From: Bryobacterales bacterium
GTDB lineage: Bacteria > Acidobacteriota > Terriglobia > Bryobacterales > UBA6623
Direction: 5' to 3'
NCBI GenBank assembly: GCA_965247305.1
Contig: OZ252030.1
Span: forward strand, 5,027,699 to 5,091,698
DNA: 64,000 nucleotides
In this document: positions 45,501 through 54,500 of the stretch, piece after piece
Position numbering within the stretch: position 1 is the stretch's first letter
Layout of the letters: each line of letters starts with the position of its first letter
Program-made: the position numbers

Positions 45501-48500
45501 CTAAGCCTCGGATGTAGCCGTGCGAGAACGAGCGGCCGATCTTGGCGCCGGGCAGATCGTTGGGAATGCTCGGGCTGTGATCAGATACGATCGCCTGCTG
45601 GTAGCCGACCTGCTTGTAAGCATGCATCGCGGCGAGCATGTCGACATCGCCCTCGTCGATGAATGTTTCTTCATAGTGCGGGACGCTACCGCGCACCGCT
45701 CGGAAGTGTACGTGGTGGATTTTGCCACGGCCTCCGATTCGCCGAATGGCGTCAACGACATCGACTCCCATTTCCGTCACCGTTCCCTGGCAAAATGTAA
45801 AACCGTTCGCCGGGCTTGGCACCGCATCTAAGAATGACTCGATCTCGTCGGTGTTGGTAATAAGGCGTGAGATTCCGCGCATTTCAGCAACCGGTGGATC
45901 CTTTGGATGTAGCGACATTTTCACGCCTAACTCCTCGGCCGCCGGCATTACATTTTTCGCGAAATAGAGCAAGCGCTCCCACAGCTCTTCGCGAGAAATT
46001 CTCCCGAGTTCCTGAAAGGGTGGCGCTTCCCGAACGCTTTCGTAATTGAACGCCTTGTAGGTGGCCCCACCGCGTCCGGGCTTGGAGTAGTAGCCGACGT
46101 CCGCCCCCCACTTGAAGTCCGGCGACCATCGCCACTCGACTACGCTCACTCCCGCGGCGCCGGCCGCGATGATACTACTTCGAATGTTTTCGATGTCGCG
46201 ATCGCGCTCAGGCTTTCCAAGCATCGAGTTCATCAGCCAGCCGAGAGGCAGCATCAACGAATGCAACTGCAGGTCGAACGCAGCGCAGCGTTGTTTGACT
46301 GTTTCGATATCGCCCTGCGACCAAAATCCTTTGCCGTCGGAATCGACCGAGTCGGTACCTTGCAGCACGACATACTCCAGACCTAACTGGGCCATCCAAC
46401 GTAATGTCGCTTCGTCTAGGTTCCCGATATTTTCCGAAACGCGGGGAGCCCAGTCTTCCTCGGCCGGCACCGACTGTGTTGTGCGATTGCTACAAGCGTT
46501 GTTGGCGGAAACGGCGCCTACGACTCTGGTAATAGCCTGGCGGCGAGTGAAGTTCATCGCGGCCATTGTAACTTGTCGCCGGTGGGATACGCACAGCCTT
46601 CGGATAAGCTTGCGGCTAAGCGCTTGCGACTGAATCGATTGGCAAATCGTTTAAGAAAAAAATACCAGCAAAACATGACGGTATCCATAAAGATACTGTA
46701 TCCTGGTGTTGACAGAACGCCCTGATACCTAGCCGAACGAAACCCGCCTGCATTGACAAACTTTAACGGGCAACATTCGGCAAACGAAATACGGCCAGTC
46801 GTTCTGTCAGGTGCGAAAGGAGCCACCGCGAGCGATGGATATTATTGCGATTATCGGAGAGTTGAGAAAAGAGCTAGAGCGGATCGACCAGCTGATTTTG
46901 GCGTTAGACACGCTGTCACACGGTCGCCGTCGAGGTCGTCCTCCCAAATTGCTTCAGGAGTTACGGCAACGTGCCAAGAGCGGTGACGCTGAAGCGTCCG
47001 CCGAGCCCGCCGCCCCCAAAAAAGCACGCAAGAAGGCTGCCAAGAAAAAGGCCGCAAAGAGCTAGCGCGACGCGAATCTAATAAACGGGCGTCCCGTAGG
47101 GAATAGGAGTTTGAATTCTCCGCGGGGCGGTGACTCGCTCAATCTTCCACTTGCCGCTCAGGTTACTGAGATAGATCTGCTGAACTTCGTTGCGCTCGGC
47201 GTATACGTATTCGACTCGAACCTGGGCCTCTTCCTCCGACAGGAGTTCCGGCTCATTCATCGCGATGCCCTTGATTTCGCGATTTCGTTCCTTAAGAAAT
47301 TCAGAGAATTTTTCAGCGCCCATCTCGGCGTAGCTCTGCCGTAATGTCTTTTCCAATTGGCCGCTGTAGCAACCCAGGTATTCGTCGACGATTCCGTCGC
47401 GAGCGGCATCGAGCATTGCATAAATAACGTCTCTTGGCTTTTCAGGTTCCGAACGACTGGACCGAAAAAACGGTGCGACGTTCGAAGCACTTTCAGGCAG
47501 CTTGAATGCGCCTTGATTCCAGCCAATTGCGCCGAGTGCGCCCGCGATTAGAGCGATCGTCACGGCCTGGGCCTTGGCGTCTTTGGTCATCGCTAGGAAA
47601 CTAACGTGCGCGGTCGCGGCGAACGATCGTTAAGTCAAGGTTCCCACTTTCATCGACAATCGTCTTGCGAAGTCGCGGCAGAACCTGCTCCATGGTTTCA
47701 AGAAACAGCCGATCGCGCGTGACCTGGCGATTCTTCGAGTATTCGGCAGCGAGGCCCGTGAAACGCGCGGCATCACCCAAGGCTTCGTTGATGACGCGCT
47801 GCTTGTGGCCTAGCGACGAAATCAGCATCTGTTGCGCCTCACCTCGAGCGCGCGGCACGATGTCATTTGCGTAGCCTTCGGCTTCATTAAAGATTCGTGC
47901 CGAATCGGCTCGAGCGGAGGCGACATCTCGAAAAGCGTCGGCAGCCTCGGGGGGCGGCGTGACTGAGCGAATATTTACGGTTGAGACGACAACGCCGAGC
48001 TCATATCCATCGATGAGCTGCTGCGAGCGACGCCGCACGATTTCTTGGATCGCCAACTTCTCTGTCGTCAGCACTTCGTCGACGGTGCGAGCGGCGATCT
48101 GCCGCCCAAGCTCGGCCTCGACGGCGTTGGCAACAGCGCGGTTGGCTTCGGCGGCTCTAAACAAATAGTCCGCCGGATCGGCGACGCTGAATTGCACCAC
48201 GGTGCGCACGTTGATGATGTTTTGATCGCCGGTAATAAACTGCGAAAGCGCCGGGTCGGCTGGAATCGCATTGGCCTCGTCAGCAACCTCGCCGCCGATA
48301 AACGCACGCTTCAGCTCGCGAACCTTGAGCCTGTGAACCTGTCCGATAGGCCATGGCCAATGCCAGCCGACCCCCGGCGTTGCGCGTTCAACGGTTACGG
48401 CGCCGAAGGTGGTGAGCACCGCCTGCTCTTCGGTCGGCACAAGATAGATACCGAGCACAAGCCACAGCGCAAGCAAGTACAGCGCGTACTTCTTCTTGGC

Positions 48501-51500: not shown

Positions 51501-54500
51501 GGCGGTCTCGACGATCACCTTGGCGAGCGGGTGATCAGAGCTGGCCTCGGCCGTTGATCCAAGCGTCAACACCTCGATCGCGGTGTGACCCTCAGCCGGG
51601 ACCACTTCGAGAATTTCAAACTCGCCGGTCGTTAGAGTGCCCGTCTTGTCGAATACGACGGTGTCGACTTCCGATGCCGTCTGGACGACCTGACCGCCGC
51701 GAACGAGCAGCCCGCGGCGCGCCAGTCCGCCAATCGCGGCGACCATCGCCGACGGCGTCGCGAGGATCAGCGCGCAGGGGCAGCCGACGATGAGGACCGC
51801 CACAGCGCGGCGAATGCGCTCGGTGTTATCGAAGTCCGACGAGAAGTAGTAGACACCAGCGGCCGCGGTTAATATCGCCGGCAGGAAATAGCGAGCGTAC
51901 TTGTCGGCGGTGCGGACAACCGGAGCTGTCCGGTGATCGCGGGCTTCTTCGACCAACTGGATAAGCCGGGCAAGCGTCGACTCGGCGGCGGCGCGGCTGA
52001 CGCGAACGTGAATTAGCCCGTGTCCGTTGACTGTTCCAGAAAAAACTTCGTCGCCAACCGCCTTGTCGCGGGGCATCGACTCGCCCGTAATGGGGCTTTC
52101 ATCGACGGACGATTCGCCGGTCTCGATGATGCCGTCGGCCGAGATGCGTTCGCCGGCCCGGACGATGATGAGGTCGTCGGGAAGCAGGTCTTCAACGTGG
52201 ACCTCAATCTCTCGACCCTCGCGCAGGACGCGAGCCTCGTGCGGAAGTTGATCGACAAAGCGGTGAATCGCCCGCTCCGTTCGCCCGGCAGCCCAGGCCT
52301 CGAGGCCCTCGCCAAGCAGCATGATGAACATCGCTTCGGCGGCAGCCAGGTACTCGCCGATCATCATCGCTGCGAAGGCCGCAATGACAATCGCTAGATC
52401 GGCGGATATCTTGCGATCGAGCAGCTCCGAAATAGCTCGATAGAAGGTTTTGTAGCCGGCGATGACGGCCAAAAGGATAGCCGTGTCGTACCCGAGAATG
52501 TTGTCAAAGATACCTAAAAAGTTGAGCAGCAACAACACGCCGACCAGCGCGGTGAAGCCGACATACTTCACCTGCTCGCGGCGATCGCGATTAATCGCGT
52601 GATCTTCTGAGACTACGTGCACCGGTAGACAAAGATAGCAAAGCGCAATGATGAGTTTTCACGATGGTCGCGGACCCCTGAACAGTTCTTGATATTGTGG
52701 CGCGCGCCTCCGGCGGGCTGCACCGACCTCCGGTCGGCGTCTGGAGTTTGGCCTTTCACTAGATGGGACGCGCGGTAAGCACGTTCTTGAGTTGTGAGGG
52801 ATCTGAGAATGCTTGTGTCTCAAAACATTTTGAGGTATTCTTGTATCTAGTTGTTTAGCTTGTTGTGTAACTAGATTCATTTCCAAGGAGACCTCATGTC
52901 CTTCCCCACCAAACTGCAGTTGATCAAGCGCAAGGCTTCCCAACAGTTCTACGTCAACTTCCCCTCCGCCAGCGCTCAGATGCTCGACTTCCAGCCCGGC
53001 GAACAGCTCGAATGGATCCTGCTCGACCGCTCCCAACTCGTGCTCAATCGTTTGCAACCTCCGCCCGTCGAGTTGAAAAAAAACTCCCGATCGAGTCGTC
53101 GACACCTTCTCCCGACTCTTCGCCAAAGGCCTCAACCCCCACGCTCGACAAAGCGTGAACGACCACCTCACCCGCCTCGCTCTCGGTGCCGCCGTCTGCC
53201 TCGGCCGCTCCACCATCACCGGCCTGCTACATGCCTCCGGCGAGAGCTTTCAGGACTGGAGCGCCGGCTACCGCCTGTTCTCGCAACAACGCGTCGAGCC
53301 GCAACGCCTGCTCGATGCCTCGCGCCGCGAGGTGCTCGCTCGCTTGCCGCCCGAGGCTCCCTTGGTCGTCGCCATCGACGATACACTGCTCGCCAAGTCG
53401 AGTCTCAAAACGCCCGGCGTGAGTTGGCGGCGCGATCCGCTTGGACCCAAGTTTCAGGCCAACTTGATTCTCGCGCAGCGCTTCTTGCAATTCTCGGCAG
53501 CGCTGCCTCCCAGCGAGCGGCAGCAGCCGGCGCGACTCATTCCGATCGGCTTGGAACACGCGCCGACTCCGCGCCGACCGTCGAAGAAGGCCACGGACGA
53601 GGTTTGGAAACAGTACCGGCGCGAGGCTCGCAAGTGCAGCTTAACGGCCCTCGCCGCCAGGCACATCGCGCGCTTGCGCGAGGCCATGAACGCCGATCCC
53701 GGAGGCGCTGACAGAGCCTTGCACCTCGTCGTTGATGGCGCTTACACCAACCGCACGGTGTTCGGATCGTTGCCCGCCGAGGTGACGTTGATCGGCCGCA
53801 TTCGTTCCGACGCCAAGCTGTATCATCTGCCCCTCGAGCAGCCCGGCAAAGGCCGCAGGCGTTGTTACGGCGAACGCGCGCCGACGCCCGAGCAACTCCG
53901 CCAGGACGACAACGTGCCGTGGCAAACGGTCGAGGTTTTTGCCGCCGGCAGCCTGCACCAGTTCAAAGTGAAGACGCTCGCGCCGCTGCGTTGGCGGCCG
54001 GCGGGAGGCAAGCGGGACTTGCGTTTGGTGGTGATCGCACCGTTGGGTTATCGGCCGCGGGCGGGCTCGAAGGTGCTGTATCGCAAGCCGGCGTATTTGA
54101 TTGTCAGCGATCCGAGTTTGGGGCTGGAGCAGATCGTGCGGCAGTACGTTTGGCGCTGGGAGATCGAGGTCAACTTCCGTGAGCAGAAGACGCTGTTGGG
54201 AGTCGGACAGGCGCAGGTGCGGCAGCCGGACGCGGTCGAGCGGGTCCCTCAATTTATGACGGCGGTGTATGCGCTACTGCTGTTGGCGGGCGCGAGTTGG
54301 AGCCGCCAACAGGGCGTGGACGACGCCTTGCCGCGACCGCACTGGCGACGCCGCTCGCAGCCGCAACGGCTCACCACGCAACGGCTGATCAGCCACCTGC
54401 GGGCCGAGCTTTGGGCGGACGGCGTGCAGCGGCAACATTTCTGCGGCTTGCGGAACACTTCGCAATCCAACACGAAGCTGCAGAAACTCCCAAGAGGCGC

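Follow-up and report, generated by a model that had tools for sequence, protein, structure and literature searches.

In Escherichia coli, HflK and HflC form a cage of 24 alternating subunits that binds FtsH hexamers (PDB 7vhp, 7wi3, 9cz1, 9cz2, and 9paw; PMC12048511, PMC13220708), and joint mutation of HflK residues R141, E142, and R185 lowers FtsH pull-down (PMC13220708). In Pseudomonas aeruginosa, the cluster PA2434–PA2439 encodes HmtA together with PaFlo5/6/7 (PMC4542158, PMC11761036, PMC13086221), and HmtA has been reported as a Zn/Cu importer that is upregulated under zinc starvation (PMC8456098, PMC4542158, PMC11761036). A 2026 study of nine P. aeruginosa SPFH proteins described no clear phenotype, and neither "ATPase" nor "HmtA" occurs in its main text (PMC13086221). 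PacL scaffolds, which carry a motif that binds metal, gather the P1B pump CtpC into clusters, with PacL1 binding zinc and being needed for CtpC abundance (PMC9374683), and stomatin encloses AQP1 and UT-B (PMC12407830).

Here, we describe an operon in a 64,000-nt stretch of DNA from a Bryobacterales bacterium (contig OZ252030.1; hereafter, the window) in which a P1B ATPase is encoded together with three SPFH units. The genome-wide survey's note on this locus had found no description of it. This still applies to the fusion reported below, for which our literature searches returned no paper, but not to the unfused cluster, which is already known (PA2434–2439) and published as a zinc-starvation locus.

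A P1B-type ATPase is fused to HflK at the head of a four-gene operon

Gene calling placed four closely packed genes on the minus strand, from position 52622 down to 47078 (Table 1). The product of the first gene matched the E1-E2_ATPase, Hydrolase, and Band_7 families in a domain search and exceeded the cut-offs of both TIGR01525 for heavy-metal P1B ATPases (residues 75–625; 549.5 vs 346.25 bits) and TIGR01933 for HflK (residues 697–979; 198.8 vs 159.4 bits). The single frame and both profiles thus bear out the earlier claim of a 1013-aa P1B ATPase with a C-terminal HflK, and the gene order together with the hflC and hflK profiles likewise upholds the claim that the fusion heads an operon with HflC, HflK, and a small protein. 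An assembly artefact was ruled out as the origin of the fusion by a single contig of run X1 (possibly the source sample), which covers 46895–52767 with zero differences; no RNA data set carrying the operon was listed.

Table 1. Features of the operon, in positions of the window
Feature	Position	Strand	Size and basis
Extended -10-like element, conserved	52632..52640	-	9 nt ahead of start codon
Fusion gene, P1B-type heavy-metal ATPase plus complete HflK	49581..52622	-	1013 aa, GTG start; Pfam and TIGR profiles
ATPase part, residues 14–626	50745..52583	-	Sequence motifs, alignment A1, AF2 model
WxxxH motif (W762, H766)	50325..50339	-	Alignment A1, group comparison
HflK part, residues 674–985	49668..50603	-	TIGR01933, AF2 model
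hflC	48597..49577	-	326 aa; TIGR01932, 242.8 bits vs cut-off 134.4
His-rich N-terminal tail of HflC	49497..49577	-	Sequence; precedes membrane helix
Second, free hflK	47601..48587	-	328 aa; TIGR01933, 218.8 bits vs cut-off 159.4
Small protein gene	47078..47590	-	170 aa; N-terminal membrane helix and NTF2-like domain

In the AF2 model of the fusion (mean pLDDT, 84.2; pTM, 0.64), the HflK part comprises a helix at residues 674–691, strands and helices at 694–874, helices at 876–948 and 950–968, and strands at 971–975 and 981–985, and it has every cage-forming element, i.e., membrane helix, SPFH domains, long coiled coil, and C-terminal beta strands. Two predicted helices connect M6 of the pump to this part, and the SPFH RFG motif and the M6 His lay 86–101 residues apart in 57 of the 62 fusions scored.

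The HflC tail holds 12 His residues within a 30-residue window and, being N-terminal to the membrane helix, is predicted to be cytoplasmic. Among 63 HflC proteins, 50 carry such a tail and 13 lack it, and it is absent from HflC of the planctomycete kits examined; the description of HflC as His-rich therefore fits this protein but not the family as a whole. The membrane-anchored NTF2-like protein is an accessory of the acidobacterial P1B kit.

Pump motifs point to a probable divalent cargo

The ATPase part retains TGES, CPC (residues 281–283), DKTGT (325–329), HP, and GDGVND, has N590 in M5 and H611, Q612, and S615 in M6, and has no N-terminal metal-binding domain. In alignment A1 (128 rows), D325 and H364 each occur in 126 rows and the CPC tripeptide in 120–121, the remainder being gaps or one change. 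The model resembles CopA, ZntA, and 7qbz (E-values of 1e-43 to 1e-45) and has the eight-helix P1B membrane domain.

P1B-1 Cu+ exporters are marked by Tyr-Asn in M5 and Met...Ser in M6 (PMC4285229); alignment with E. coli CopA revealed an Asn without the preceding Tyr and a His in place of Met. Similarly, alignment with E. coli ZntA placed Asn and His where P1B-2 (ZntA-type) pumps have Lys in M5 and Asp in M6. P1B-4 pumps carry an SPC-type motif in M4 (PMC13460109), for which alignment A1 has CPC, and the P1B-6 or CtpC-like pattern N-X18-H-N-X-(S/T) across M5–M6 (PMC13460109) is similar to but distinct from the N590-X20-H-Q-X-S found here, as judged from the stated motif rather than the CtpC sequence. 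The M6 His is invariant, and the residue after it is Q or E in 127 of the 128 rows. Judging from CPC, N590, and H611, the pump probably carries a transition metal in divalent form (of the Zn, Co, Mn, or Fe type) and not Cu(I).

A WxxxH loop is shared by HflK of unrelated transporters

The WxxxH motif of the HflK part (W in 127 and H in 124 rows of alignment A1) lies in an insertion following the strand that holds R141/E142 in E. coli HflK. Its loop, with a pLDDT of ~53 in the model of the fusion, is a candidate metal site on the periplasm side. Among P1B-fused HflK proteins, W was found in 82 and H in 80 of 85, and every CDF-fused HflK (11/11) had the motif, as did the long HflK in hmtA-type cassettes with an unfused pump (4/4). 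The motif is thus retained across unrelated transporters, being common to these three groups. No canonical HflK (0/33; 29 acidobacterial and 4 reference), free operon HflK (0/14), or SO_0444-HflK insertion (0/14) had it.

The equivalent of E. coli R185 is kept in 64 of 85 fused HflK proteins vs 28 of 29 canonical ones, and that of R193 in 66 of 85 vs 25 of 29. In free operon HflK, the R185 equivalent occurs in 2 of 14 and the R193 equivalent is also mostly absent, while the R141/E142 columns vary even within canonical HflK. Because the R185 and R193 equivalents are retained as in canonical HflK, the fused HflK may still bind FtsH. In a quick SPFH tree (78 rows), one unstarred branch (SH-aLRT, 93) has the canonical and free HflK proteins on one side and the fused and cassette types on the other; the tree is too weak for orthology, and long branches meet. 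A predicted complex of the ATPase domain with the SPFH domains of the fused HflK and HflC scored 0.00 and was counted neither for nor against.

HflC follows the pump fusion, not FtsH

The junction had been noted in one open frame in 23 of 46 genomes of the order, and this held in a larger sample, in which it was matched in 71 of 151 genomes, with one frame over nearly the whole query in 69. HflC was found in 70 of the 151, all of them among the 71 junction-positive genomes, and FtsH in 149; specifically, 79 of the 80 junction-negative genomes have FtsH and no HflC match. HflC occurrence therefore follows the pump fusion rather than FtsH (junction in 70/70 HflC-positive genomes vs FtsH in 149/151 genomes), these profile counts being drawn from related genomes and linked genes and hence not independent.

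At the level of loci, one long frame was present in 62 of 65 (the window and 64 relatives), 2 of the 62 ending at contig edges; of the remaining three, two were frameshifted and one was cut. An hflC match, previously seen in 9 of 9 loci, lay downstream in 63 of the 64 relatives (one of them broken), and the 64th contig stops within the ATPase. Split frames also occur in two further genomes (G905 and G907). Of the best 150 clusters (clustered at 50% identity), 77 contained both parts, down to ~32% identity, and the fusion was also seen in Planctomycetota, Fervidibacterota, and Elusimicrobiota (four phyla named in all). A homologue search with the HflK region matched fragments of the same fusion only, and an Atlas search without the ATPase families returned Band_7 clusters only. 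A Burkholderia cassette protein had no match among 301 genomes of another phylum in a search without a positive control. Marinimicrobial loci were considered as split kits and rejected, those examined being plain hflK-hflC pairs.

The same kit carries other metal exporters

The three-gene kit also occurs with an SO_0444-type or CDF exporter fused to HflK in place of the ATPase. Each of the nine second hflC copies retrieved within the order lay in an SO_0444-HflK kit (9/9). Elsewhere in Acidobacteriota, 20 regions with a second or divergent hflC comprised 11 P1B, 5 SO_0444, and 1 CDF kits and 3 hflK-hflC pairs of the plain type. In genomes G007, G025, and G041, a plain pair stands beside a transporter kit. 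SO_0444 is annotated as a Cu/Zn efflux family and CDF proteins are mainly exporters; these alternative clients therefore favor export. Since this cage subunit is also joined, in relatives, to metal exporters of two unrelated kinds, transporter-linked HflK/HflC cages likely serve metal transport and not their textbook partner FtsH. Of the earlier proposal of an SPFH cage around a metal pump rather than FtsH, the assignment of hflK and hflC to the pump is supported (fusion in 70/70 HflC-positive genomes, other exporters fused), but a seat for the pump inside the ring and the exclusion of FtsH are conjecture, and the R185 equivalent is kept in 64 of 85 fused HflK proteins.

Upstream region and genomic context

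The -10-like pattern occurs in 49 of 50 loci sharing this N-terminus, with column conservation at background beyond -21, and was not called by a consensus promoter scan. No Shine-Dalgarno match was found ahead of the fusion start and no conserved operator in the 120 nt upstream of the 50 loci; Fur-family genes are present in the genome. A coding role for the conserved 20 nt before the start was rejected because, at one locus (L025), a stop lies in frame only two codons farther up. Neighbour clustering revealed no conserved metal client or regulator next to the P1B kit.

The operon holds the only hflK and hflC of this genome, and ftsH, which encodes a normal periplasmic domain, lies ~3.2 Mb away. 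FtsH periplasmic loops from 4 kit and 7 kit-less genomes and E. coli gave no readable pattern. By tblastn, the genome has no ZntA-type pump, the matches being only the fusion pump and one CopA-type pump, and neither ZnuA nor ZIP had a match in this 95%-complete genome. Across the 151 order genomes, ZnuA occurs in 11 (5 of the 11 with the kit) and ZIP in 55, and neither showed complementarity with the kit.

Proposed mechanism and alternatives

Pump and HflK form a single polypeptide with intact catalytic motifs and all cage-forming elements. We propose, with a probability of roughly 45%, that the operon encodes an HflK/HflC-type cage with a built-in divalent-metal P1B pump that exports metal out of the cytoplasm to the part of the periplasm beneath the cage and does so without FtsH. 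By analogy with the E. coli structures, HflC would alternate with HflK, and the pump-bearing and free forms would share the HflK positions; this arrangement would account for the occurrence of both types in each kit. The cytoplasmic His tails of HflC may collect or sense metal on behalf of the pump, which has no metal-binding domain of its own; exported metal would then meet the WxxxH loop on the inner cage wall, and the chamber would buffer it and pass it to envelope proteins, presumably as housekeeping rather than induced detoxification. The lack of a conserved upstream operator speaks for this reading, as do the HflC profile, the exporter families in the other kits, and the conservation of WxxxH, with stomatin and PacL as precedents. 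Against it stand the report that HmtA, whose cluster is the nearest known one, is an importer and its zinc-starvation rise; the operon's being the sole source of hflK and hflC in the genome; the retained R185/R193 equivalents; the missing WxxxH in all 14 SO_0444-HflK insertions and the low pLDDT of its loop; the non-universal His tail; and the lack of a conserved metal client or regulator nearby. A broader version, possible if doubtful, is that this HflK/HflC branch has turned into a modular periplasmic metal-loading chamber: P1B, CDF, or SO_0444 exporters would be plugged into the ring and fill the enclosed space with metal, which a ring of WxxxH sites would retain in kits of the P1B and CDF kinds, and envelope proteins would be metallated there. 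Such a chamber, if true, would explain the rise of the hmtA cluster at zinc scarcity.

The comparative evidence for export from SO_0444 and CDF kits equally suits a scaffolded efflux platform with no special chamber, in which the SPFH ring clusters and stabilizes the exporter, perhaps shielding it from FtsH, for plain detoxification. PacL1, through its zinc binding and effect on CtpC abundance (PMC9374683), offers a precedent, and the host lacks a ZntA-type pump; however, the near-invariant periplasm-side WxxxH of P1B- and CDF-fused HflK is left unexplained, no conserved metal-responsive operator is present, and the related P. aeruginosa cluster reportedly goes up at zinc scarcity and not excess. 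Overall, this platform is unlikely. We consider improbable a caged importer as reported for HmtA, in which cage and WxxxH would collect scarce periplasmic Zn or Cu and the pump would carry it in toward the His tails. Against it, the other client families are of the efflux type, the majority of P1B pumps are exporters (PMC8456098), few genomes of the order have ZnuA with or without the kit, and the fused and cassette ATPases, 33% identical, are separate in the best tree. In its favor, a single clade of the two was not rejected (AU test, P = 0.42), the literature describes HmtA as an importer whose cluster contains three SPFH genes, the Paraburkholderia cassette has genes for a zinc ABC transporter and for a PCu(A)C chaperone next to it, and the absence of ZnuA and ZIP matches in the host agrees with import. 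A mixed quality-control hub, in which the cage retains FtsH as in E. coli and the tethered passenger pump couples metal status to proteolysis, would fit the equivalog cut-offs passed by all three SPFH parts, the R185 equivalent of fused HflK, the sole hflKC of the genome, and the normal FtsH periplasmic domain, yet it appears quite improbable in view of the 79 order genomes with FtsH and without any HflC, the distant ftsH, the free HflK mostly devoid of R185, and the retention of a transporter kit on top of a plain hflK-hflC pair where one exists. Finally, loss of a stop codon can create fusions, and a few split frames exist (2 of 65 loci; G905 and G907), but a chance fusion of adjoining genes with no joint function is exceedingly unlikely and largely refuted by conservation across four phyla, the conserved linker length, the joint presence of both parts in divergent clusters, and the joining of HflK to three unrelated metal transporter families.

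Significance and comparison with known systems

The covalent fusion identifies a client of a bacterial SPFH cage outright, and if the metal-loading chamber is true, SPFH cages would gain a transport job unrelated to proteolysis. The hflK/hflC paralogues of the hmtA zinc-starvation cluster are likely pump partners and not FtsH modulators, and the finding is relevant to whether HmtA imports metal, as has been claimed. The four-gene kit lends itself to expression, one-tag purification, and imaging, and mutants of W762, H766, H611, and the His tail would distinguish the rival mechanisms.

Like this operon, PA2434–PA2439 has three HflK/HflC-type genes alongside a P1B ATPase. Plasmid cassettes of the hmtA layout (Burkholderia, Paraburkholderia, Rhizobium, and Klebsiella), taken as its orthologues from gene content and annotation rather than from the PAO1 proteins, share the long HflK with WxxxH, a His-rich HflC tail in 3 of 4, and an ATPase with His in M6. 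In the cassettes, however, the pump is a separate gene with M6 motif HN and no Asn at the N590 position, and the long HflK has its own multi-helix N-terminal domain where the ATPase stands here; in addition, a weak Zur site is reported for the hmtA cluster.

The closest solved relatives by sequence, E. coli HflK and HflC, have the same membrane helix, SPFH domains, coiled coil, and C-terminal strands. The present system differs from them in its pump-fused HflK, two HflK types, WxxxH, and His tail and in tracking a pump instead of FtsH across genomes. Mycobacterial PacL-CtpC effluxosomes resemble it in combining a membrane scaffold, a cytoplasmic metal-binding tail, and a CPC-type pump with an M6 His, whereas PacL is a small unrelated protein whose foci form without flotillin and without a periplasmic cage (PMC9374683, PMC13460109). 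The stomatin dome, although eukaryotic, noncovalent, and built around a client that is not a metal transporter, is likewise an SPFH cage whose client is a transporter and not a protease (PMC12407830).

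Organization and conservation of the fusion operon

The ATPase–HflK fusion heads four minus-strand genes with intergenic gaps of 3–10 nt, and a single contig from run X1 (possibly the source sample) spans the whole operon with zero differences. The genome-wide survey's note had placed the junction in a single open frame followed by hflC, and both points were borne out: one long frame was found in 62 of 65 loci (the window plus 64 related loci), and hflC follows in 63 of the 64 relatives. Close relatives that carry names are mostly Bryobacterales. The small gene was detected in 60 of the 65 loci; it was not detected in two with full flanks, and three further contigs end before reaching it.

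Features of the operon, its surroundings and compared loci
Feature	Position	Strand	Description
Fusion, 1013 aa	window 52622-49581	minus	passes curated cut-offs for heavy-metal P1B ATPase and HflK
hflC	window 49577-48597	minus	passes HflC cut-off
Free hflK	window 48587-47601	minus	passes HflK cut-off
Small gene, 170 aa	window 47590-47078	minus	membrane helix and NTF2-like domain
Insertion sequence	window about 52700-54713		DDE_5 transposase (53155-54531) and small upstream frame
Two neighbouring UxuA-like genes	window 44477-46566		mannonate dehydratase/TIM barrel; downstream of operon
Group II intron	window 42943-44310		reverse transcriptase/maturase
CDF transporter–HflK fusion	L163:4919-6688		with WxxxH; then hflC, hflK
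Cassette long HflK	L079:5934-7829		hmtA-type; N-terminal multi-helix membrane domain, about 300 residues
Cassette long HflK	L132:8164-10182		as L079
Paraburkholderia cassette	L130:1-7222		in metal island with GTP-binding protein, zinc ABC transporter, DUF2946, PCu(A)C chaperone

In 49 of 50 loci the start codon is preceded, at a distance of 9 nt, by an extended −10-like element, with neither a Shine-Dalgarno match nor conservation farther upstream among the 50; this pattern suggests a near-leaderless constitutive promoter. The insertion sequence lies about 76 nt before the fusion start codon and leaves this element intact; the genome contains 83 near-full copies of it (about 100-fold depth), and a related strain in run X5 lacks it.

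The fusion is real, old and widespread. Of the top 150 clusters at 50% identity, 77 match both parts, fragments counted. Most clusters have no taxon assigned, but the source names of 20 that were checked include Planctomycetota, Fervidibacterota, Elusimicrobiota and the acidobacterial class Thermoanaerobaculia. Its P1B kit is patchy (8/251 class genomes, 71/151 order genomes). A tree of 26 sampled fused ATPases groups 25 of them in a single clade (SH-aLRT 99), together with two rows that look unfused, and places the elusimicrobial sequence elsewhere. The three planctomycete-type loci read (16 fetched) keep the order fusion, hflC, hflK, without His tail or small gene. The His-rich HflC of the survey's note holds for 50 of 63 loci and not for the remainder, some of which have a His-rich stretch elsewhere, either on free HflK or on the pump.

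Association of HflC with transporters

The fusion operon represents a version of the HflK/HflC cage that is linked to metal transporters. HflC occurs in 70 of 151 order genomes, every one among the 71 junction-positive, and FtsH in 149, although these genomes are kin and the kit genes linked, which limits the weight of the counts. No free-standing hflC was found among the order copies read. Second hflC copies lie in kits with an SO_0444-type permease fused to HflK in 9 of 9 fetched (one more was unfetched). Twenty divergent or second hflC regions picked from a phylum search comprised 11 P1B kits, 5 SO_0444, 1 CDF and 3 plain pairs; in this set the small protein accompanies 11/11 P1B kits, one copy 3 kb off, but is missing from every SO_0444 and CDF kit. 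In three genomes a plain hflK-hflC pair coexists with a transporter kit. A CDF-fusion query recovered both domains in 11 of 16 matches, the CDF-HflK clusters P0443-P0453.

In the nine second loci (L184-L192, Bryobacterales), the permease fusion is followed by hflC and then by a free hflK of the long type; in the three read, the next genes encode a periplasmic-binding-protein-like product and a small membrane protein, and a ZIP-family match lies a few kb downstream on the opposite strand in 8/9.

The pump and the WxxxH loop

The fusion pump has a complete set of catalytic motifs and no N-terminal metal-binding domain. Across 128 aligned fusions, CPC is conserved in 120–121 rows, D325 in 126 and N590 in 127, and, in M6, H611 in 128, Q/E612 in 127 and S615 in 121. 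H611 aligns with the Met/Asp ligand column of E. coli CopA/ZntA and N590 with the Asn/Lys column, so that neither the Cu(I) nor the ZntA signature is present; the P1B-6/CtpC motif, as quoted in a passage of PMC13460109, is similar in pattern but does not match. From these residues, the cargo is probably a divalent metal. In the AF2 model (pLDDT 84.2, pTM 0.64) the P1B fold is normal and is followed by two linker helices, one more membrane helix and a HflK with no part missing. Since the C-terminus of P1B pumps is cytoplasmic, the extra helix would place the SPFH part on the periplasmic side, where it also lies in HflK.

Fused HflK carries an insertion with WxxxH (pLDDT about 53, poorly modelled) after the strand that bears R141/E142 in E. 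coli; according to passages of PMC13220708 and PMC12048511, these residues touch FtsH in the chamber interior. W is kept in 82 and H in 80 of the 85 rows compared, which comprise 12 locus sequences and 73 of the 77 clusters, with four short fragments left out. The motif recurs in CDF fusions (11/11) and the long HflK of unfused proteobacterial cassettes (4/4), and is absent from canonical acidobacterial (0/29), reference (0/4), free operon (0/14) and SO_0444-fused HflK (0/14). Its retention when the transporter differs makes a role related to metal more probable than a contact specific to the pump.

Alternative readings

A cage containing the pump has a probability of about 0.85. The full mechanism, in which the pump exports metal into the chamber, falls somewhat short of even odds, and a plain efflux scaffold is doubtful. 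CDF transporters are mainly exporters. An importer appears still less probable; reviews attribute import by HmtA, the pump of an unfused Pseudomonas operon, to Lewinson 2009, the original HmtA paper. P0269 (961 aa), a P1B ATPase joined to a family-5 solute-binding domain, hints at a possible importer. The whole genome has no ZnuA or ZIP match (ZnuA occurs in only 11/151 order genomes); besides the fusion its only P1B pump is CopA-type. It also has one CDF, NRAMP-family matches, seven Band_7 proteins and two Fur-family genes that are clear.

The survey's note had favoured a metal pump rather than FtsH. HflC does track the junction, and 79 of 80 junction-negative genomes have FtsH and no HflC match, yet the exclusion of FtsH is weakened because fused HflK keeps the R185 equivalent (64/85, against 2/14 free and 28/29 canonical HflK) and the operon is the genome's only hflK/hflC. 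Nor is the insertion itself a bar to FtsH, since other canonical HflK also carry one there. An FtsH hub is improbable.

Comparison with known systems

Titles, abstracts and passages of the literature searched, with subscription papers outside its scope, gave no description of the fusion; this basis includes PMC9431628, PMC12005517 and PMC4285229. The unfused form of a transporter-tied cage is in print, listed without explanation: P. aeruginosa PA2434-2439 combines the P1B pump HmtA, described as a Zn/Cu importer, with three zinc-starvation-induced HflK/HflC-type genes (PMC8456098, PMC4542158, PMC11761036), treated as FtsH modulators. PMC13086221 names them PaFlo5-7, and its abstract reports SPFH mutants without clear phenotype. 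The N-terminal domain of the cassette long HflK (L079, L132) has no Pfam or NCBIfam match and possibly represents a fourth type of client fused to HflK. Four plasmid cassettes with the PA2434-2439 layout resemble the operon here, with the HflC His tail in three and WxxxH in all; their ATPases share 33% identity with the fusion pump and form a separate clade, although one joint clade was not rejected by the test. The PacL-CtpC platforms (PMC9374683) and the stomatin-AQP1/UT-B dome (PMC12407830) are functional parallels to this operon.
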